From: Candidatus Woesearchaeota archaeon
Lineage (GTDB): Archaea; Nanobdellota; Nanobdellia; Woesearchaeales; GW2011-AR4
Assembly: GCA_018303625.1 (NCBI GenBank)
Contig: JAGVXV010000010.1
Coordinates: 13,411-77,410 of the forward strand
Direction of reading: 5' to 3'
DNA length: 64,000 bases
The position numbers and the translations under genes are program-made. The notes beneath the pieces are model-generated. The model searched no databases, was not told the origin of the DNA, and saw only the letters and a list, made by a program, of their open reading frames with translations. This document shows positions 2,390 through 64,000 of the stretch, one piece after another (the first letter of the stretch is position 1; each line of letters opens with the position of its first letter).

Positions 2390-3202
2390 ATGGAAAAGAA
2401 CCAAGTAACTGAAGCGTTAAAGAGAGCAAAGGAAGTTTCTTCTAAAAGGAATTTTAACCAGAGTGTTGACCTAATCATAAACCTAAAAGGCTTGGACTTA
2501 AAAAAGCAGGAGCAGCAGCTGGACATATTTGCAAACCTGCATTACAGCAGGGGTAAAAAAATATCTGTCTGCGCCTTGATAGGAGCCGAGCTTCAGGAGC
2601 AGGCAAAGGCATGCGACGAGTTTATTCTTGTGGATGATTTCGCAAAATTCAGCAAGAAAAGTGAAATTAAGAAGCTGGCAAACAAGCATGATTTCTTTGT
2701 TGCGCAGGCAACAATAATGCCGAAAGTGGCTGCAACATTCGGAAGGGTTTTGGGCCCAAGGGGAAAAATGCCCAATCCGAAGATAGGCTGTGTCGTGCCT
2801 CCAAATGCCAACCTGAAGCCATTGTACGAGAAGCTGCAGAAAACCATGAGGATAATGACAAAAGGCAATCCTATTATACAGTGCTCTGTCGGGAAGGAGG
2901 ACTCCAGCGAGGAAGAAGTTGCAGACAATGCCATGACAATTTACAGCACGGTATTGCAGGCTTTGCCTAACGAAAAGCAGAACATAAAAGATGTTTACCT
3001 GAAGTTGACAATGGGCAAGGCAATCAAAATCGGGGAGAAGGCAGAGGAAGAGGAAACAGGTAAGAAGACCAGGAAAAAAGCAGGCAAAGAAAAGCCGAAG
3101 GAATCGGGCGAAGAGAAAAAAGCTGATGCGAAAAAAAAAGAAAAGCCGAAAAAAGAGAAAAAAACAAATGATAAACTCCCCAATAATGAAGATAAAAAAT
3201 AA
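2390..3202 (+). CDS. rpl1: 50S ribosomal protein uL1 with Lys-rich C-terminal extension
   Basis: The N-terminus 'ALKRAKEVSSKRNFNQSVDLIINLKGLDLKK' and 'MPKVAATFGRVLGPRGKMPNPK' are typical of L1. A GGAGG SD precedes the ATG. The roughly 50-aa K/E-rich tail is atypical. Confidence 0.9.
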   Translation: MEKNQVTEALKRAKEVSSKRNFNQSVDLIINLKGLDLKKQEQQLDIFANLHYSRGKKISVCALIGAELQEQAKACDEFILVDDFAKFSKKSEIKKLANKHDFFVAQATIMPKVAATFGRVLGPRGKMPNPKIGCVVPPNANLKPLYEKLQKTMRIMTKGNPIIQCSVGKEDSSEEEVADNAMTIYSTVLQALPNEKQNIKDVYLKLTMGKAIKIGEKAEEEETGKKTRKKAGKEKPKESGEEKKADAKKKEKPKKEKKTNDKLPNNEDKK

Positions 3203-4799: not shown

Positions 4800-5657
4800 A
4801 TGCAAAAAGAGAACGAGCTATTCAGCAGGCTAAATGAAATAAAGAAGGAAATAAACGCCTTGAAGAACAAGCTTAATGAAATTGACAAGGAGAAGGAATC
4901 GTGGTTTGGCAAAAAGGAAGGATGCAGCAAAAAAATAAGGGGCCTTATAATCTCTGTCAGGGAAAAAAGGGGCAAGAGGGACAAGCTGACAAAAAAGGTC
5001 AGGGATGACAAGGAAAAAAGGAATGCCCTCAATGAAAAAATAAAAAATTCTATTTCTGAAATCAAAAGGCTTAATCAGGAGAAAAATTCCCTGATAAAAA
5101 AACACGGCTTCAAGGAGGATCCTTTCAGGATCAAAGGCGAAATTGACAGGCTGGAGCTGAAAATAGAAACAGAGGCCATGCCCTTTGATAAGGAGCAGAA
5201 AATAACCAAGCAGGTAAAAGAGCTGAAAAGGAGATTTGACGAATCAAAAATTTTGGGCGATATTCTGGAAAAAGGAGGCAGCTTGGGCAAAGAAGCCTAC
5301 AACCTGAAAAGCGAAGCTGAGATTCTGCATGAGTCTATACAGGAAAATGCGAAGCAAAGCCAGGCAATACACGAGGGGATAATTGCAGATTCCGGGGAAA
5401 TCGATAAGCTTAAGCTAAGCGAAGAGGAGTCTTTTTCAAAATTTTTGGAATTGAAGAAAAGTTTCAGCGAAATTAATTCCGTGCTAAAGGAAAAGCTCGG
5501 GGAATACAGCAGCCTAAGCTCGGAAATGCAAAAAATGCGGGATGAAAATGAGGAGAAACTAATCAGGGACAAGGAAGAGTTCATCAGGGAAAAAATCAAA
5601 AAGGGGCAGAAACTGACTACAGAAGATTTATGGATATTCCAAAACCAGAAAAAATGA
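4800..5657 (+). CDS. Archaeal coiled-coil protein (COG1340-like), function unknown
   Basis: 285-aa K/E-rich ORF with heptad-like repeats throughout and a C-terminal 'KGQKLTTEDLWIFQ' motif. No enzymatic motifs. Confidence 0.4.
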   Translation: MQKENELFSRLNEIKKEINALKNKLNEIDKEKESWFGKKEGCSKKIRGLIISVREKRGKRDKLTKKVRDDKEKRNALNEKIKNSISEIKRLNQEKNSLIKKHGFKEDPFRIKGEIDRLELKIETEAMPFDKEQKITKQVKELKRRFDESKILGDILEKGGSLGKEAYNLKSEAEILHESIQENAKQSQAIHEGIIADSGEIDKLKLSEEESFSKFLELKKSFSEINSVLKEKLGEYSSLSSEMQKMRDENEEKLIRDKEEFIREKIKKGQKLTTEDLWIFQNQKK

Positions 5658-5843
5658 TTATTTTTTTAAGAATTCCGTATAGCCGCACTGGCCGCAAAAC
5701 TCCCTGTTGGCATGCTTTGCCATGAAAGTTCCCGGGCCGCATTTCGGGCAATACCTGTTTTTCCTCTCCAGCTTATCGCCTGCTACCTTGTAGATCTTCC
5801 ATCCCTGCAAAGGCTTTTTTGGTTTTTTTTTCTTTTTTGCCAT
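5658..5843 (-). CDS. rps27ae: 30S ribosomal protein S27a (eS31), zinc-ribbon
   Basis: 61 aa with a K-rich N-terminus followed by '[27 protein letters not shown]' (C4 zinc ribbon), typical of eS31. Confidence 0.85.
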
Positions 5844-5845
5844 TT

Positions 5846-6136
5846 TTACTCTTTAGCTTCCTTAGCCGGGGCTTTTTCTTTTTTCGGCTTTATCTCAATG
5901 CTGCCCATCTCTTTCTCATCATTGTAGAGATAGCTTTCCACGCTTGCTTTCTTTAAGCCAAAATCAGTGTAAATGTGCTTGACAACAACCAAATTCTCAT
6001 TGGCGTTCAGCAAAGAGGCAATCTTTGATTTGGTTTCATTTTTTGATGGAGTTGAAGCGCTGAAATTTACCTCTGAGATTATTTTCGTCCTTGACAGCAA
6101 TGGCTCTTCCTTCTTTTCGATTATCTTCAGATCCAT
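5846..6136 (-). CDS. rps24e: 30S ribosomal protein S24e
   Basis: Internal start '[23 protein letters not shown]...[19 protein letters not shown]' matches the S24e fold. The 47-aa N-terminal extension in the ORF track begins at GTG and is unlikely to be translated. Confidence 0.8.
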
Positions 6137-53094: not shown

Positions 53095-53355
53095 TTACCA
53101 GCTTCTTATGTAGACAGAATGGCCCCATTGTATCAGCAAATCAACGCCCAATTTCTCAACCAGCAGGGGCACATCGCAGCCTCCCCAGCAGCTTCCAAGC
53201 CAGATAACAACCTTCGCACCGGTATTCTTTTCCAGATATTCCTGTATTTCATTTGCCCTCGGCTTCAGACCGTCAGGCAGCTGTATGCATACCAGTTTTG
53301 CATTGCTTTTCCTGATTTCCTCAGCTGCTTTGTTTAGTTCTAAATCGTAAGTCAT
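53095..53355 (-). pseudogene. dph2: Dph2 (2-(3-amino-3-carboxypropyl)histidine synthase) N-terminal fragment
   Basis: The 86-aa ORF 'LVCIQLPDGLKPRANEIQEYLE...VVIWLGSCWGGCDVPLLVEKLGVDLLIQWGHSVY' matches only domain 1 of Dph2. It ends in a stop about 70 nt upstream of rpiB. Full-length Dph2 is about 330 aa. Confidence 0.6.
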
Positions 53356-54973: not shown

Positions 54974-56227
54974 ATGCTGAAATTCTTGAAAAATATTTTT
55001 ATGCAGAAGGAAATCAAAAATGAGGAAATTAACCTGAACGAGCTTGAGGGCTGGATTGAGTCCAATAAAAAGATTATTTTAAACGACCTCAATAAAAAAA
55101 CCGATGAGATAATGTCCAGGATAAGCAATGAGGTAAGAAAGTGCAATGAAAACCTCAGGGCATTGGAAAATGCTGAATTGGCAAACCCTAAAATACCGCT
55201 GAGGGCAAAACAGGCAATGGAAGGCAACAGGGAAACCTATATAAAAAGGATAAATCTTTTTTTGGCGGGGATTGACTTAAAAGAGGCTGATTACGGCAAA
55301 CTCCTTGATTTCTGCACTAATTTTGAAATTCAGGCAGGTGAAGTGGCAAAAAGCACTTTCAAGAGCTATCAGGTTTTGCAGCATTTCTTTGCCAATGAAT
55401 CCTCCGATATAGCCAAGAATATAAAATATATTGATGATAATGTAAAAGAAATCAGACATCTGATAGTAAGCTCTAAGGTAAGCTCCATTGACGGCATAAA
55501 AAATGAAATTCTTGGTTTAAGGATGAGGATAAACCGGAAAAATAAGCTGGAGGAGGGCTTAAGCGGCAAAGAAAAGCTTATTGAAGAATTAAAGGAATTG
55601 AAAGCTGGCTTGGCAGAAGAGATAAATGATTTCAGCAAATCCGAAGAATATACTGGCTTTAAAATTTTAAAGGATAATAAAGCCTCGATAGAAAAGGAGA
55701 TTGGCGCGCATACTGCTTCCGTTATTCATTCTTTCTCAGTTTTGGAAAAAGCGCTGAAAAAATTTTCCAGGATATCATTGGAGGATGAAAAATTGATTAA
55801 CAATTATCTGGTTTCTCCGGTAAAAACTCTAGCCGAGGACAAGGGATTGAGGATAAAAAAGGTATTGGATAATTTAAAGGGCAATCTGCTCAGGAATAAA
55901 TTGGAGCTGGAAGAAAAGAAAGTGCAAAAATCCCTGAGCGAGATAGAAAAATTAAGCGTTGATTTTTTCATGTATTTCCTCGCAGCTTACAATGAACTTG
56001 AAGAGAGATTAAAAAACACGTGCAATGAGCTGGAAAATAATATGGCAGAGAAAAAATATATTGAATTGAACAATAGGATGGGCTTATTGAACCTCCAAAT
56101 GGAGAGGTTAGAAGAGGACATTAAGGGCTTAAAGCAAGAATCAGGGAAAATAGATATTCAGGCATTGAAAACTAGCCTGCAGGAAAAGGTGAACAGCGCA
56201 TTAAATAAATGCATCATCATTTCTTAA
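54974..56227 (+). CDS. coiled-coil protein, hypothetical
   Basis: 417 aa, K/E/L-rich with heptad periodicity throughout. No catalytic motif. Confidence 0.4.
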   Translation: MLKFLKNIFMQKEIKNEEINLNELEGWIESNKKIILNDLNKKTDEIMSRISNEVRKCNENLRALENAELANPKIPLRAKQAMEGNRETYIKRINLFLAGIDLKEADYGKLLDFCTNFEIQAGEVAKSTFKSYQVLQHFFANESSDIAKNIKYIDDNVKEIRHLIVSSKVSSIDGIKNEILGLRMRINRKNKLEEGLSGKEKLIEELKELKAGLAEEINDFSKSEEYTGFKILKDNKASIEKEIGAHTASVIHSFSVLEKALKKFSRISLEDEKLINNYLVSPVKTLAEDKGLRIKKVLDNLKGNLLRNKLELEEKKVQKSLSEIEKLSVDFFMYFLAAYNELEERLKNTCNELENNMAEKKYIELNNRMGLLNLQMERLEEDIKGLKQESGKIDIQALKTSLQEKVNSALNKCIIIS

Positions 56228-57701: not shown

Positions 57702-59696
57702 TTAAATAAAAAGCGGGACAAAGACAATTGACACAATTCCCATCAGCTTTATTAAGATGTTCAATGAAGGCCCGGCAGTGTCCTTAAAGGGGTCTCCTAC
57801 AGTGTCGCCTACAACAGCCGCCTTATGGGCAAAGCTTCCCTTGCCTCCAAATTTCCCCTCCTCTATGTATTTTTTTGCATTGTCCCAGGCGCCGCCGGAA
57901 TTTGCCATGAATACTGCCATCAAAAACCCAACGACTGTTTTTCCAGCCAGCAAGCCTCCCAAGGCTTCAGGCCCAAGCAATATGCCGACAGCTATCGGAG
58001 TTACAATAACCAGAATCCCGGGCAAGATCATTTCCCTTAAAGCCGCCTTTGTGCTTATGTCAATGCACTTATGGTAATCGGGCTTTGCTTTTCCTTGTGC
58101 GAGGCCTTTTATCTCCTTGAATTGCCTCCTTGCTTCATTGACAATATGCATTGCAGCCTTCCCGACAGAGCCCATCAGCATGGCCGCAAAAATAAAGGGC
58201 AGCAATCCGCCAACAAACAAGCCAACCAAAACTGTAGGGTCTGCAACATTTATTGATTTTATCCCCGTAATCTCGGCAAAGGTGACAAACAACACCAGGG
58301 ATGTCAAGGCTGCGCTTCCAATGGCAAAGCCCTTCCCGATGGCAGCAGTTGTATTTCCTACAGCATCAAGGCTTTCAGCCCTTTCCCTTGTTTTCTTTCC
58401 AAGGTTTGCCATTTCAGAAATGCCAGCCGCATTATCAGCAACAGGGCCATAAGTGTCTGTCGCCAGGGTAATGCCCAAGGTTGCCAACATCCCGACTGCT
58501 GAAATCGCGACTCCGTACAAGCCTTCGCTGAAATTATTCACACCATTCGCTAAAAAAAACGCGGCTAAGATAGCTATGCTTACCGACAAGACAGGGATTA
58601 TTGTGCTCCACATGCCGATTGCCAGGCCTTCAATTACATTTGTTCCTGCTCCTGTCCTTGAAGCCTCGCTTATGGTTCTTGTAGGCTTTCTTTTGTTTGA
58701 AGTGTAATATTCAGTTGAAAGCCCTATAGCAATTCCCGCCAATAATCCTGATAAAGTTGCCCAAAAAATTCCTAAATTTTTTACCATGTAGGATATTATA
58801 AAATAGGATGATGCAACTGTCAGCAAAGATGCCGCTAAAATTCCCTTATTCAAAGTCCATATCAGGTTTTTGCTCTTTCCCACCCTTACAAAAAATGTCC
58901 CCGTTATTGCCGCCAATATGCCTGCAGCGCTTATAGCCAGAGGCAGCAGGACATAATTCTCCCTGTTTGAGGTATAAGCTAAAAACCCTATGACCATGGC
59001 TGCAACAATGCTTTCCACATAGCTCTCGAATAAATCAGCGCCCATTCCAGCAACATCACCCACATTGTCACCCACATTATCAGCTATGACTGCAGGGTTT
59101 CTTGGGTCATCTTCCGGGATTCCCCTTTCAATCTTGCCAACCAAGTCTGCGCCGACATCTGCAGCTTTTGTGTATATGCCGCCGCCTACTCTTGCAAATA
59201 ATGCTATGTAAGAAGCGCCGAAAGTGAAGCCGAAAATAAGCTGGGGATCCTTAAACTGCGGGAGAAAATAGAAAGCAGTTATTCCCAACAAGCCAAGGCT
59301 GACAACAGTAAGCCCCACGACAACTCCTGAATTAAACGCTATTTTCAGGCCCGAATCAATGTTTTTTTCGCAGGCCTCTGCAGTTCTTGCATTGGCCTTT
59401 GTTGCTATATGCATCCCTATCCTTCCAGCAACTGCAGAAAGAAAAGCGCCAGCAATAAAGGAGACTGCAAGCTCCAGCCCATTTTCCAGGGCAAAATAAA
59501 GTATCGCTGCAATAATAATCGCGAAAACAGCCATTATCCTGTATTCCCTGTTAAGAAAAGTCAAAGCCCCTTTATGTATTATTAATGATATTTCCTCAAC
59601 TTTCTTATTTTGTATTTCTTGCCTTACAATGCCTCTTCCCAGGTAAGCGGCAAATAAAAGCCCCATTACTCCAGCAATGAGTATTATCCACAGCAT
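57702..59696 (-). CDS. hppA: Membrane-bound proton/sodium-translocating pyrophosphatase
   Basis: 664 aa with about 16 TM helices. '[17 protein letters not shown]', '[21 protein letters not shown]' and '[18 protein letters not shown]' are canonical H+-PPase motifs. Confidence 0.95.
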
Positions 59697-59775: not shown

Positions 59776-61005
59776 TCATTTAGCAGCGGGTTTTGGGCTA
59801 AATGACTGAATTACATAATCAGCCAATTTTACTGCATCGTAAGTTGGTTTTTCATTTGAGCTTAACTGTCTTTTCAGTTCATCCAATCTTTGTTTACCAT
59901 CCAAACCCTTTCTAACTAATACTGGTATATGGCTATCTCCCTCAATTTCCGCTATCTCCTTTTTTAAGCGAGTTCTTTCATCAGTGATATACTTTAATGC
60001 CTTACTCCTTCCTTCTTCAATTCTTAAAATAAACTCGCTTACTTGCACGCCTTGAGAGGATAGTATATATCTTACACTTTTATCGAATGCCTTCATTATG
60101 TCGAAAAAGTCAGTCTCATAATGATCAGACCTCATGGATAAGTATTGGATAAGTTGAGCAGCTTTTAGGACGGGAATTCTTGTTCCCTCAATAGCATCAA
60201 ATATGGTGTAAAGTGCTTGGGGGGCATTAACCTTGCCTGTGAGTCCGTAAAACGATTTTAATACTTCTCTGGCTTCATCTCGTGTCCTATTGTATCTTAG
60301 AGTTGCGGCTGCCGCCTGATATGCAGAAGATGTAGAGCAGGCTATATCTTTTAGGCTTTGGCCGATGCGCATGTCCGGAAACTCTTTTTCTCCAAATAAT
60401 ATAAGTCTGGACAAAGACAGGTTCTCATCAGGTTTTCCTTTGCCGATTGTATCTGATGCCTCTTTGATAATAGCTCTAACAACATCTCCAAATTGTGATA
60501 TGCTTTCAGGTTTGTCTCCCAATGCAATGCCGTCATCTAATTTTACCTTCTTTAGAACTTCAAGATAAAACTCCACGATTCCCGTTACACTTTGAATATC
60601 CACTCTGGCTACACTTGTTACCTTATTCGCTATATCAGCTGCCTGTTCTAAGCTGAATCTTTTCTCCCCACTGTCAGATTTATAACCTAATATTTTTTCC
60701 GCAATCTCTAATCGCCTCACAATCGGAGCGATGTTAAACTCATTAGGGTCTATTTCCTCATCATGCCTATAAAGCATTGAGAGCAGATAAGCACTTTCAT
60801 CTCTTGTCCTACTATTGCCCAAAAGAGCATTTGTGAGTCCCCTCACAGCACGCGCCTTTAGAATGTCTGCTTCTGCTTGCTCAACCATCCCTAAAGCATT
60901 CTGGCGTGCTTTTTGGGCCGCTTCCAATTGTGTTACGAGATTATCTAAAGAAAAAGCGCCTGACTCAGGATCTATGCCCAATTTTGGATTCGGCTGGACT
61001 GACAT
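59776..61005 (-). CDS. hypothetical protein (409 aa)
   Basis: A soluble, helical-looking ORF with no motif and relatively AT3-rich codons. It lies immediately downstream of atpD. Confidence 0.4.
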   Translation of the reverse strand: MSVQPNPKLGIDPESGAFSLDNLVTQLEAAQKARQNALGMVEQAEADILKARAVRGLTNALLGNSRTRDESAYLLSMLYRHDEEIDPNEFNIAPIVRRLEIAEKILGYKSDSGEKRFSLEQAADIANKVTSVARVDIQSVTGIVEFYLEVLKKVKLDDGIALGDKPESISQFGDVVRAIIKEASDTIGKGKPDENLSLSRLILFGEKEFPDMRIGQSLKDIACSTSSAYQAAAATLRYNRTRDEAREVLKSFYGLTGKVNAPQALYTIFDAIEGTRIPVLKAAQLIQYLSMRSDHYETDFFDIMKAFDKSVRYILSSQGVQVSEFILRIEEGRSKALKYITDERTRLKKEIAEIEGDSHIPVLVRKGLDGKQRLDELKRQLSSNEKPTYDAVKLADYVIQSFSPKPAAK

Positions 61006-61196
61006 AAATTATCACAAAATCATTTAACTACTTTAAAATGGAATCAGAATCAATGTTATATTTAAATGTTTCTAAACTCTAGCCTTAACCCAAAAGTACA
61101 AATAAATAAAAAACCCGATGATGAGCAAAAAGTTTATCGCAGTGATTGCAATGACAAACCATATTAGGAATTTCCTTTTAGCGGGTTTTTTTGCCA

Positions 61197-61814
61197 TCAT
61201 GCCCTGACTTTTATCCTTTTCATCCTGAATATGTTCTCTCTTTCCATCTCCTCCAGGCGCAGGTTTATGAAATTTTTCACCTGGTCGAGCCTGGGCATAA
61301 CAACATACTCCAATGCATTTACCCTTCTCTTTGTCTTTTCAATCTCTCTCAGCAGCTTTCTCATGGAAGTTTCAACCTCTGCCGCCAGGATTATTTTTTC
61401 AACGACTTTTTCATAAGCGGCTGCTGCCTCGTCAATTGATGCTGAATTGTAAAATCCATAGCCCCTTTCCAAAAAATGCTTTTGCAAAGATTTGCTTTCA
61501 ATTTTAGGCACCTTAACCCCCATTATGTTTTTTGTCTGCAAAGAAACTTCGGGAATATCTTTTATTGCCATTGCTATTGACTTTATTTTGAGGTCGCCTT
61601 CCAGTGTTCTTGCTATATTCATCTTTTCCAGCGCTGTTTGGTATTCGCTAACCAGCTCTTCCCTCAGCGTTTTTGCCTTCTTCAGGATTTCAAAAAATTC
61701 GAGAATAAGACCATCTCTTTTCTTCTTCAGCAGGCTGTAGCCTGATTTAGCTAACTTAATCTGCTTTTTTACTTTCAATAATTCGGATCTTGTTGGTTTA
61801 ATGTCCTGGGCCAT
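61197..61814 (-). CDS. atpD: A/V-type ATP synthase subunit D
   Basis: 'MAQDIKPTRSELLKVKKQIKLAKSGYSLLKKKRDGLILEF', with coiled-coil character, typical of A1 subunit D. Confidence 0.85.
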   Translation of the reverse strand: MAQDIKPTRSELLKVKKQIKLAKSGYSLLKKKRDGLILEFFEILKKAKTLREELVSEYQTALEKMNIARTLEGDLKIKSIAMAIKDIPEVSLQTKNIMGVKVPKIESKSLQKHFLERGYGFYNSASIDEAAAAYEKVVEKIILAAEVETSMRKLLREIEKTKRRVNALEYVVMPRLDQVKNFINLRLEEMERENIFRMKRIKVRA

Positions 61815-62817
61815 TTTGTATTGGTATTTTTAATTGGTATATTGCCTTTTGTGAAGGAGTATCTCCGATTCTTGCTAGGAATACCGACCCTCCTCTCCCA
61901 ATATAATCCCGAATAAATGTCTGGTCTTCTCCGCTTAAAAATTCCCTTAATCCAGTAGGCAAATCCCTTCCCTGCCTAAATGCAAAAATTGTTGATTTAG
62001 TATGAGCAAAACTGTTCCCATTTCCGTTTAAGGCATGAGTCATTGCATAATAAAGGGAGTCTCTTATAATAGGGTCGAATGAATTTAACTGCAAATCTAT
62101 TTGAAATATTCCAAACCCCGTTGGGGAGCTATGTACATTGTTAACAAGAATTATATTTGGATCCTGCCCCGAGGCAAATTCATCAATATCTCTTTTAGTA
62201 TACCATTCTTCCAGGCAAGGCTTTAATTCCTCTAAAAGTTTCAGCCTGGTTCCACTTCTAGCGTAATGTTGATTAGGTACATCAAAAATTCTGCCTTTCG
62301 CATGGTCAAAAAAAAGTACTCCCGCCCTATATGCTTCTTCAACTTTATGCAATTGTCTTTTTGCATTTTCTATAGCATCTCCGTCAACCATAGTTTTGAA
62401 AGCCTCTAAATGCGCATGGTCATCTAAGCCATGCTCTCTTGCGTATTTCACTGCCCCGCATACTTCATGGGCAATCACAACCGTAGGTTTTTTTTGGGAA
62501 TTGTAAAGAGTATTGCCTGCTGTATTATAAGTTGCAACACCAGGTATCTGGCTTAGAATAACCCTTAACACCTCATTCCTCACATCGCTGCACAGGTAAA
62601 CATGAGTGTCTATTGGTTTTTCAGTATTATTAAGAACTTGTAAGTATCTTCTTGCTTCTTCATGGCCTACTTCACTTATCGTTATTGGGGTAATTTCAGC
62701 CCAATCTAATCTCAAATCCCTTATTTCCCTAATTTTTACAGCTTGCTCTTGTTCCACAGCCACAACCATGCTACCACCGCCTAGCCTTCCTTCCAGATTA
62801 ACATCACCGGAGTCCAT
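61798..62817 (-). CDS. hypothetical protein with beta-carbonic-anhydrase-like Cys/His motifs, inserted between atpB and atpD
   Basis: 339 aa. 'YLCSDVRNE' (CxDxR-like) and 'VIAHEVCGAVKY' (HxxCG-like) lie about 40 aa apart, as in beta-CAs. The C-terminal roughly 130 aa are unassigned. Codon usage is AT3-rich. Confidence 0.35.
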   Translation of the reverse strand: MDSGDVNLEGRLGGGSMVVAVEQEQAVKIREIRDLRLDWAEITPITISEVGHEEARRYLQVLNNTEKPIDTHVYLCSDVRNEVLRVILSQIPGVATYNTAGNTLYNSQKKPTVVIAHEVCGAVKYAREHGLDDHAHLEAFKTMVDGDAIENAKRQLHKVEEAYRAGVLFFDHAKGRIFDVPNQHYARSGTRLKLLEELKPCLEEWYTKRDIDEFASGQDPNIILVNNVHSSPTGFGIFQIDLQLNSFDPIIRDSLYYAMTHALNGNGNSFAHTKSTIFAFRQGRDLPTGLREFLSGEDQTFIRDYIGRGGSVFLARIGDTPSQKAIYQLKIPIQNGPGH

Positions 62818-62838: not shown

Positions 62839-64000
62839 TTATCCTGACTCTTTTTTCTCTTCAGCTTCTCGAGATTTGTAGTATCTCTTCCTCAGCTCCG
62901 GGCTTATCCTTGTCAATTCATTTTCCGGCAATAATCCAAGCAGTTTCCATCCCAAATCCAAAGTCTGGGAAATGCTCCTGTCCTCATCTTTTTTCTGCCT
63001 TACGAACTTGTCTTCAAATTCTGCAGCTAACTTAAGGAAGTTTTTATCTCTTGATGATAAAGCCTCTTCTCCGACAATCGCAACAAGGCCCCTTAAATCA
63101 CGGCCTTCGGCATAAGCTGCGTACAACTGGTCGGAAACCTGCTTATGGTCTTCCCTTGTTTTTTCAGCGCCGATGCCGAGATTCATCAGCCTGGAAAGTG
63201 ATGGAAGAACATCTATGTTGGGGTAAACTCCTTTCCTATGCAGTTCTCTCGCTAAAACAATCTGCCCTTCAGTTATATAGCCGGTTAAATCCGGAATAGG
63301 ATGAGTTATATCATCGCCAACCATTGTCAATATTGGGATTTGGGTAATGCTTCCTTTCTTTCCCTTGATAACACCAGCTCTTTCATATATCATTGCCAAA
63401 TCAGTGTACATGTACCCTGGATAGCCTCTTCTTCCGGGAATTTCTTCCCTTGCCGCGCCTATCTCTCTTAAGCTTTCGCAATAATTGGTCATATCCGTTA
63501 AAATCACGAGGACATGCGCATCATGCTCAAATGCAAAATATTCAGCTGCTGTCAAAGCCATTCTTGGCGTTACAAGCCTCTCTACAGCAGGGTCATTTGC
63601 AAGATTAAGGAAAACAACGCTTCTCTGCAAAGCCCCTGTTCTCTGGAAATCATTTATGAAATATTGTGCTTCTTCATTAGTTATGCCCATTGCGGCGAAA
63701 ATAACAACAAAATTCTCTTTCTTGCCGACAACTTTTGCCTGCCTTGCTATCTGCAGGGCGATTTCATTATGCGGCAGGCCAGAGCCTGAAAACAATGGCA
63801 GTTTCTGGCCCCTAACCAGGGTATTCATTGCGTCTATTGTTGATACTCCGGTCTGTATAAAGTCGTGGGGGCTGCCTCTTGAAAAAGGGTTTATTGCAGC
63901 TCCGATAATATCGAGCTTTTTTTCCGGGATTATTTCCGGCCCGTTGTCTATCGGCTTTCCTGAGCCGCTTAAAACCCTGCCAAGCATCTCTTTTGAGACG
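62839..64000 (-). CDS. atpB: A/V-type ATP synthase subunit B (partial; N-terminus beyond window end)
   Basis: '[17 protein letters not shown]', '[14 protein letters not shown]', '[19 protein letters not shown]' and '[31 protein letters not shown]' are diagnostic of the non-catalytic B subunit. The ORF runs off the 3' edge of the window. Confidence 0.9.

Follow-up and report, generated by a model that had tools for sequence, protein, structure and literature searches.

A putative beta-class carbonic anhydrase gene of an undescribed subfamily at the atpB-atpD junction of archaeal A-type ATPase operons

In a 64,000-nt stretch of DNA from a Candidatus Woesearchaeota archaeon (contig JAGVXV010000010.1, positions 13,411 to 77,410; referred to below as the window), a 339-codon open reading frame (ORF), ORF339, lies between atpB and atpD of an operon for an A-type ATPase. 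Profile comparisons and structure prediction indicated that ORF339 and its relatives, termed X here, are very probably homologues of carbonic anhydrases belonging to the beta class (beta-CAs) with an intact catalytic site, and the gene was found to recur at the same junction in divergent lineages. The explanation that we favor as a whole, with modest confidence, is that ORF339 encodes a soluble, cytoplasmic, zinc-dependent beta-CA of an undescribed subfamily and that this enzyme would be coupled to the A-type ATPase, a reading that draws on sequence, on a predicted structure and on analogy with other systems. The genes and segments concerned are as follows.

62839 to the window end (ORF 62839-63987+), minus strand: atpB, subunit B of the A-type ATPase, truncated at its 5′ end by the edge of the window (Pfam ATP-synt_ab, 4.9e-80, and ATP-synt_VA_C, 6.7e-31; NCBIfam ATP_syn_B_arch, 2.3e-209)
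61798-62817, minus strand: ORF339 (X), 339 aa, a predicted soluble, divergent, two-domain beta-CA-like protein
62263-62715, minus strand: residues 35 to 185 of ORF339, putative N-terminal catalytic-type beta-CA domain (hhalign, matches to PDB sequences and modelled order of strands and helices)
62578-62592, minus strand: C76-S-D78-V-R80, predicted first zinc ligand and Asp-Arg dyad (C, D and R invariant in 30 sequences)
62512-62526, minus strand: N98-T-A100-G101-N102, counterpart of the RNxxN strand-2 motif of beta-CAs (A100 and G101 invariant, N102 at least 90% conserved; aligned to RNAGN and HRNVAN of beta-CAs)
62452-62469, minus strand: H117-E-V-C120-G121-A122, predicted second and third zinc ligands (H, C, G and A invariant in 30 sequences)
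61816-62262, minus strand: residues 186 to 334 of ORF339, C-terminal half, probably a second beta-CA domain that is degenerate and lacks zinc ligands
62158-62169, minus strand: G217-Q218-D-P220, GQxP motif of the C-terminal domain (Q218 and P220 invariant)
61197-61814, minus strand: atpD, central-stalk subunit D of the A-type ATPase (Pfam ATP-synt_D, 1.4e-56; NCBIfam NF001542, 1.1e-87, above cut-off)

Homology of ORF339 with beta-class carbonic anhydrases

A protein identical to ORF339 has been deposited as a hypothetical protein from a Candidatus Woesearchaeota (DPANN) metagenome-assembled genome (MAG), and all named database copies of X carry the same annotation. Direct searches with ORF339 yielded nothing in NCBIfam, and neither phmmer nor a 9-sequence profile gave anything useful against PDB sequences; the link to beta-CAs surfaced only with structure prediction and with the family widened to 30 sequences. 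Close relatives formed 9 clusters with 51 to 63% identity, and in a set of 1.84 billion representatives the family as a whole amounted to ~24 genuine clusters at 50% identity, almost all with proteins of ~300 aa. The 30 sequences of the family profile were 19 to 63% identical to the window protein, and a further profile search of protein databases gained P0041 only. Six matches to giant representatives (P0028, P0029, P0031, P0033, P0036 and P0038) were discarded as spurious, short stretches of the profile having been matched repeatedly; inspection of P0036 and P0038 identified cadherin-like repeat proteins in which the match was limited to 'DTHxYxVSDxRFEVV'.

An earlier, sequence-only reading of this stretch had pointed to CxDxR- and HxxCG-like motifs in ORF339. 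Both motifs were present, and both aligned to the zinc ligands and Asp-Arg dyad of beta-CAs with hhalign and with the profile run against PDB sequences. The 30-member profile returned 15 PDB matches, all of which were beta-CAs, carbonyl sulfide (COS) hydrolase or carbon disulfide (CS2) hydrolase, the best being CcaA (E 5e-4). Comparison by hhalign with canonical beta-CAs (Escherichia coli Can and the beta-CA encoded at locus L017) gave a probability of 83% (E 8.9e-6) over residues 57 to 128, with C76, D78 and R80 placed on C42, D44 and R46 of Can, A100-G-N on V-A-N, H117 on H98, and C120-G121 on C101-G102. The zinc ligands of ORF339 were also aligned to those of CcaA and Rv3588c in the PDB-sequence matches. 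A model of ORF339 generated with AlphaFold2 (AF2) had a predicted local distance difference test score (pLDDT) of 81.8 and a predicted template modelling score (pTM) of 0.81, and a Foldseek search with this model ranked CsoSCA top (E 1e-4, probability 0.99), followed by the pea, Candida, CcaA, Rv3588c and E. coli beta-CAs.

Fourteen columns were invariant among the 30 sequences (C76, D78, R80, A100, G101, H117, C120, G121, A122, N151, Q218, P220, Y257 and G310), 9 of which are residues of the CxDxR, AG and H...CGA motifs, while Q218, P220 and Y257 fall at the GQxP and 'EYAV' positions. ORF339 has the Cys-His-Cys order, the Asp-Arg dyad and, in the model, the alpha/beta fold that are hallmarks of beta-CAs. 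Matches to Pfam Pro_CA (PF00484) were detected in 7 of the 30 members; the gathering threshold of 25.7 bits was passed only by P0032 (38 bits), a protein whose gene is flanked by atpB and atpD, with P0034 reaching 22.5 bits. No transmembrane segment was detected in ORF339 (maximum Kyte-Doolittle hydropathy, KD19, of 0.92), and hence the protein is probably cytoplasmic.

A probable two-domain architecture with a single active site

The C-terminal half of ORF339, which the sequence-only reading had left unassigned, most probably represents a second beta-CA domain that has degenerated, and not a separate unknown module, as judged from one AF2 model. In this model, the order of strands and helices of the N-terminal half recurs in the C-terminal half, and two-domain beta-CA structures aligned to it over 232 to 253 residues, compared with ~125 for single-domain beta-CAs. 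The C-terminal half lacks the C/H/C zinc ligands throughout the 30 sequences. Q218 is separated from N227 by 9 residues, the same distance as that from Q33 to C42 (GQxP to Cys ligand) in Can, and N227 sits at the position of the lost Cys ligand; the GQxP stretch was in register with CcaA and Can, a weak match that did not reach significance. Y257 occurs within '..YYAMTHAL', which resembles the canonical '..QYAVDVL/EYAV' helix. No similarity between the two halves of ORF339 was detected by hhalign, no beta-CA was found among PDB sequences with a profile of the C-terminal half, and a comparison of this half with canonical beta-CAs returned only the 22-column GQxP stretch at a probability of 3.8%; the assignment of the second domain is, therefore, purely structural.

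In pea beta-CA, Gln151, Phe179 and Tyr205 are supplied by the partner subunit. The active site of this enzyme is located at the dimer interface and is lined by these three residues (PMC5155245, PMC13514724). In X, a single polypeptide would fold into a pair of beta-CA-like domains and so imitate the homodimer usually formed by beta-CAs. The full catalytic set, consisting of the Cys76, His117 and Cys120 zinc ligands and the Asp78-Arg80 dyad, would be held by the N-terminal domain, and the C-terminal domain would have lost its own Cys/Asp/Arg/His/Cys residues but retained, for the site in the N-terminal domain, Gln218, Phe238 and Tyr257, which occupy the positions from which canonical beta-CAs line the pocket at their dimer interface. 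The predicted outcome is a single active site per pseudo-dimer, like that of the carboxysomal CsoSCA.

Conserved position of X at the atpB-atpD junction

The sequence-only reading had placed ORF339 between atpB and atpD, with a 17-nt overlap with atpD and with a second ORF, ORF409, lying downstream. These coordinates and this gene order were all recovered on the minus strand, the start of ORF339 being 21 nt past the atpB stop and the overlap with atpD spanning 61798-61814. The canonical archaeal order is ahaHIKECFABD in Methanosarcina, in which atpB and atpD are adjacent (PMC2838876), and ORF339 is thus an extra, foreign-looking gene at the B/D junction, as had been claimed. On contigs from the same species, the whole operon reads H(105 aa)-I-K-E-C-F-A-B-ORF339-D-42 aa-ORF409-pyrophosphatase; one of these contigs, L004, has a complete atpB of 464 aa and encodes all nine standard A-ATPase subunits separately. 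No homology of ORF339 to subunits A, B, C, D, E, F, H, I or K was detected with Pfam or NCBIfam. The chance of an open frame in DNA of 40% GC is ~3e-10 per start for 339 codons (and ~3e-12 for the 409 codons of ORF409), and ORF339 is not a chance ORF, as its homologues are under selection. Residues 1 to 29 were unconserved and were disordered in the model, and the true start of ORF339 may be M17, at 62769.

The order atpB-X-atpD, with both flanks present, was observed in the window and L004 to L008, in L001 (P0008), L003 (P0009) and L009 (P0005), and also in L018/L019 (P0017, 36% identical to the window protein), L031 (P0013) and L029 (the Pfam-positive P0032, 23% identical). In L027/L028 (P0014), X follows atpB and the cut gene after X is very probably atpD. 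Short contigs with a single flank had either atpD after X (the P0004 contig and L020, with P0027) or atpB before X (L025/L026, with P0034, 22% identical). A variant was present in L024 (279-3246; P0039), in which a 142-aa fragment containing only the C-terminal domain of atpA/B is followed by X and a Na+/H+ exchanger, with atpD on the opposite strand. In all, X was located between atpB and atpD, or adjoined one of them, in at least 12 family lineages, down to ~20% identity. Gaps ranged from -1 to 92 nt toward atpB and from -17 to +3 nt toward atpD, and the order I-K-E-C-F-A-B-X-D was complete in L004, L029 and L031 and partial elsewhere.

The presence of X at one and the same junction in no fewer than 12 divergent lineages, including members with 19 to 36% identity, indicated that X is not a recent or sporadic acquisition, contrary to the accessory insertion proposed in the sequence-only reading. 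Relatives do carry the same gene between atpB and atpD, although with no recognised ATPase-associated function. The canonical atpB-atpD junction is, hence, not inviolable. One copy, P0027 in L020 (184-648), had only 154 aa because of an in-frame deletion flanked by two 'GHG' tripeptides; the deletion takes the cysteine ligand of the CGA motif and most of both domains, and this copy reflects either gene decay or an error of assembly.

Relatives of X outside the ATPase operon

Non-archaeal copies of X exhibited a recurrent link to H+ or cation transporters. In three Deltaproteobacteria MAGs, X was directly upstream of an exchanger gene of the Na_Ca_ex (CaCA) type, and the gene for P0041 comes after an Ion_trans channel gene. 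In L017 (1048-6695), X is situated after a group-4 (Ech/Hyf-like) membrane hydrogenase cluster, with Proton_antipo_M and homologues of the 49-kDa/30-kDa and 20-kDa subunits, and before a canonical 197-aa Pro_CA gene, such that two beta-CA-type genes are adjacent. A PF00361 protein was found near X in L017 only, within this hydrogenase cluster. Copies from Phycisphaerales and from a candidate phyla radiation (CPR) lineage, Magasanikbacteria, had no obvious partner gene.

Proposed function and alternative explanations

X is probably an active carbonic anhydrase (CA), to judge from the conserved site, while a role tied specifically to the ATPase is put forward more tentatively, at somewhat less than even confidence. 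According to this proposal, X would be transcribed and translationally coupled with the genes for the A1 head and stalk (atpA-atpB-X-atpD) and would accelerate, on the cytoplasmic side of the pump, the reaction CO2 + H2O <-> HCO3- + H+. The CO2/bicarbonate pool could then quickly buffer the protons removed or delivered by the ATPase, so that local alkalinisation during ATP-driven pumping, or acidification during synthesis, would be damped. In a fermentative DPANN cell, the ATPase would probably hydrolyse ATP to energise the membrane. The same rationale may extend to the exchanger, channel and hydrogenase neighbors of the bacterial relatives. Both CO2 hydration and coupling to the pump are suggested by analogy with CA-transporter metabolons (PMC7051959, PMC8003680).

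A number of observations weigh against this proposal. The score of ORF339 itself against Pro_CA was 12.6 bits (E 0.17), below the gathering threshold, and the link of the window protein to Pro_CA is transitive and profile based. The spacer between the His and Cys ligands is 2 residues in the window protein (HEVC) but varies from 2 to 16 across the family, so that the canonical HxxC is not kept, and the modelled N-terminal domain is without the helix found between strands 2 and 3 of canonical beta-CAs. In CsoSCA the His-to-Cys spacing is also longer than HxxC, as in most members of X, and such longer spacers are compatible with catalysis. X evolves faster than the ATPase subunits: relative to L001, X was 54% identical as compared to 81 to 87% for A, B and D, and relative to L018 the values were 36% for X, 75% for A, 84% for B and 61% for D. 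The internally deleted copy in L020 (P0027) suggests that X is dispensable, none of the ~24 family clusters showed X fused to an ATPase subunit, and some bacterial members (L011/12/16 and L030) have no transporter neighbor. Furthermore, the c subunit carries a PET motif, and coupling of the ATPase to Na+ rather than H+ would weaken the proton-supply rationale.

An active CA could also be a housekeeping enzyme that hitch-hikes in a strongly expressed operon and is not specifically connected with the ATPase; it would then serve general pH buffering or supply carboxylations with bicarbonate. The evidence for a catalytic site applies equally to such an enzyme, and the rapid evolution of X, the members lacking a transporter neighbor and the tendency of DPANN ATPase operons to gather unrelated small genes (133 and 174 aa in L001) are as expected for it. 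Hitch-hiking does not, however, predict that members outside the ATPase operon should repeatedly adjoin CaCA and Na+/H+ exchangers, an Ion_trans channel or a membrane hydrogenase, and the exact B-X-D junction is kept at X identities of 19 to 36%, with overlaps or 1- to 3-nt gaps to atpD; this explanation was considered somewhat improbable. A closer association than the one we favor can be envisaged, in which X is a stoichiometric accessory subunit docked on the A1 head or central stalk, forming a rotary ATPase-carbonic anhydrase supercomplex. Pumping or ATP synthesis would then be directly coupled to, or gated by, CO2/bicarbonate interconversion, and the bacterial relatives would act as a 'plug-in CA' for exchangers, channels and hydrogenases. 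Such a supercomplex is unlikely. X might, on the other hand, be a non-catalytic accessory subunit, an assembly factor or a CO2/bicarbonate-sensing regulator of the A1 head, with the beta-CA fold serving as a scaffold or ligand module. Complex subunits and assembly factors typically have genes placed in this way, between a head-subunit gene and the central-stalk gene and translationally coupled to atpD, and the degenerate second domain is a potential regulatory pocket, as in CsoSCA (PMC11086599); the degenerate C-terminal domain of the cyanobacterial CsoSCA, which binds ribulose-1,5-bisphosphate allosterically, is a precedent. A pseudoenzyme would, however, be expected to lose the five catalytic residues and Q218 and Y257, all of which were invariant in the 30 sequences, and the presence of nine standard subunits in the operon (L004), the absence of fusion proteins and the deleted copy in L020 render a non-catalytic subunit decidedly unlikely.

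The beta-CA fold is also used by hydrolases acting on other small linear molecules, such as COS or CS2, and COS hydrolase (3vqj/3vrk) and CS2 hydrolase (3ten), which have the same Cys-His-Cys/Asp-Arg site, were among the sequence and fold matches. These hydrolases were no closer to X than true CAs, the best sequence match being CcaA and the best folds those of a tandem CA and CsoSCA, and the gene contexts comprised ion transporters and a canonical CA (L017) but no sulfur-metabolism gene, making a hydrolase of this type very improbable. Recent insertion of an accessory or mobile element into the core operon, with ORF409 as part of it, would be in keeping with the orphan status of ORF409 and with a GC content at third codon positions (GC3) of 0.297 for ORF339 and 0.332 for ORF409 versus 0.43 to 0.46 in atpB and atpD. 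The AT-rich third positions noted in the sequence-only reading were thus real but mild: the mean GC3 of the 42 window ORFs of at least 200 aa was 0.419 (standard deviation, 0.084; minimum, 0.157), and as both values were within 1.5 standard deviations, neither ORF is an outlier. The conserved junction, the lack of repeats, integrase or transposase flanking ORF339 in the window, and the absence of ORF409 from the loci of relatives leave a recent insertion hardly credible. A phage, defence or mobile-element origin for both ORFs was rejected on the grounds that neither PADLOC nor PHROG returned a match, that no integrase or flanking repeats were present and that the position is conserved.

Comparison with known systems

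Canonical beta-CAs (PF00484; E. coli Can, CcaA, Cab and Rv3588c) differ from X in being ~200-aa homodimers or tetramers with two sites per dimer and a fixed HxxC motif. In these enzymes GQxP is upstream of CxDxR within the same domain, whereas in X it is present in the degenerate domain only. The tandem beta-CA of Porphyridium purpureum (1DDZ) has a zinc site in both repeats. In X, by contrast, the predicted zinc site is in the N-terminal domain only and the halves have no detectable sequence similarity.

CsoSCA (PDB 2FGY and 8THM; PF08936) resembles X in having a catalytic beta-CA domain followed by a degenerate, zinc-less one (PMC11086599). X differs in that it lacks the N-terminal helical or 'hook' domain, with only ~40 residues before the catalytic domain and a length of ~300 aa versus ~460 to 520 aa, and in that its context is an ATPase operon with no carboxysome (cso) genes nearby. 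PF08936 was not detected in any of the 30 members of X at E values up to 10, and the two CsoSCA entries were absent from the PDB-sequence matches. The duplication in X may be independent of that in CsoSCA, given that there was no match to PF08936 and that its sequence is closer to canonical beta-CAs. Short, hook-less 'non-cso' proteins of the CsoSCA family, with one zinc site per pseudo-dimer, have been described outside carboxysome loci (Pulsford et al. 2024, PMC11086599) and are frequently located near NAD or [Fe-Ni] hydrogenases or permeases (PMC11086599). The transporter neighbors of X, along with L017 and L011, echo this association. A comparison by description indicated that the 'non-cso' proteins, unlike X, belong to PF08936 and that no ATPase-operon or archaeal members of that cluster are mentioned (PMC11086599).

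The proposal for X is similar to that made for the 'metabolons' of animal CAs and acid-base transporters (CAII or CAIX with NHE, AE, MCT or in V-ATPase-rich cells), in which a CA beside an H+-moving membrane protein is proposed to dissipate local pH gradients and allow faster transport (PMC7051959, PMC8003680). The animal enzymes are alpha class and separately encoded and their physical coupling is debated, whereas X is a beta-class homologue encoded in the operon of the pump and would represent a prokaryotic equivalent. A beta-CA-like zinc site is also present in DabA. DabA-DabB, CupA/CupB on the cyanobacterial NDH-1 (PMC6981117) and the gamma-CA of plant complex I are precedents for CA-type proteins linked genetically or physically to ion-translocating machines. 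No similarity of X to DabA (PF10070), CupA or gamma-CA was found, and the partner of X, with the exception of L017, would be a rotary ATPase rather than an antiporter module of the complex I type.

The protein kind, a beta-CA, and the design of a pseudo-dimer with one site, as in CsoSCA, are already known. New elements are a sequence subfamily that is mostly undetected by Pfam, its occurrence in DPANN archaea and CPR bacteria and its fixed place between atpB and atpD; no account of a gene for a CA within an ATPase operon of archaea was found in the literature searched. If the proposal is correct, a clade of ultra-small archaea and some CPR and other bacteria own an unannotated beta-CA subfamily, and a missing CA would be added to metabolic reconstructions of DPANN archaea. 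X would also provide a genetically defined prokaryotic test case for the debated 'transport metabolon' and for CAs as local suppliers of protons or bicarbonate, with a hint that CO2/bicarbonate chemistry is part of running or regulating the only membrane energiser of energy-starved symbionts. Were the unlikely supercomplex to exist, it would represent a novel type of accessory module for ATPases and, among prokaryotes, the first transport metabolon to be encoded in an operon.

Downstream genes and other features of the loci

Between 57.7 and 64 kb the window carries a single co-oriented minus-strand block, which contains atpB, ORF339 and atpD and, in addition to the genes below, a phosphoglycerate kinase gene that was identified by gene calling and a Pfam PGK match on contigs from the same species. 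The genes following atpD are listed below.

61072-61200, minus strand: 42-aa single-pass membrane peptide (KD19 maximum, 2.58)
59776-61005, minus strand: ORF409, 409 aa, a soluble all-alpha orphan
57702-59696, minus strand: membrane-bound ion-translocating pyrophosphatase (Pfam H_PPase, 4.5e-265; NCBIfam NF001960, above cut-off)

ORF409 had been noted alongside ORF339 in the sequence-only reading. A search of 5.8 billion proteins yielded self-matches only, with no homologue outside the species, and no match was detected in Pfam, NCBIfam, PHROG, PADLOC or the PDB. The AF2 single-sequence model was all-helical with a pLDDT of 45, too poor for a fold search; ORF409 has no transmembrane segment and was present in all same-species contigs. 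The 66-nt AT-rich spacer between the 42-aa ORF and ORF409 contains TTTAAATA, which is compatible with an archaeal promoter specific to ORF409, such matches being common in AT-rich DNA. In relatives, atpD was followed by unrelated genes or by nothing, examples being a Cys-rich secreted protein in L001 and opposite-strand genes in L018, L029 and L031. As ORF409 was absent from the locus of every relative, ORF339 and ORF409 do not travel together, and ORF409 is probably a species-specific orphan in a separate transcription unit outside the conserved arrangement. A pyrophosphatase gene was likewise not found beside the operon in relatives and is a neighbor in this species only.

The 42-aa ORF (MMAKKPAKRKFLIWFVIAITAINFLLIIGFFIYLYFWVKARV) has an ATG that overlaps the atpD stop (ATGA) and encodes a basic N terminus and one strong transmembrane helix. 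In L020, atpD is followed by a gene for a 47-aa peptide of similar build, and on the P0004 contig it is followed by a 58-aa gene. Possibly, the 42-aa peptide is a small membrane partner of the ATPase that has escaped annotation.

Additional coding sequences were also noted within the operons of relatives. In L003 (744-3704), the atpB gene upstream of X encodes 986 aa and contains an intein (Intein_splicing and LAGLIDADG_3) in the nucleotide-binding domain. The L001 operon has two extra genes with no Pfam match, one encoding 133 aa between atpC and atpF (2778-3179) and the other 174 aa between atpA and atpB (5458-5982). Extra genes thus seem to accumulate in DPANN ATPase operons.

Two further ORFs of the window were recorded. 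An 86-aa ORF (53095-53355, minus strand), for which the sole match on same-species contigs was Diphthamide_syn, is far below the normal length of Dph2 and may be a fragment or part of a split gene. A 417-aa ORF (54974-56227, plus strand) is rich in Glu, Lys and Leu, had no Pfam match on same-species contigs and is the only plus-strand gene of the block, its 3′ end overlapping that of the phosphoglycerate kinase gene.

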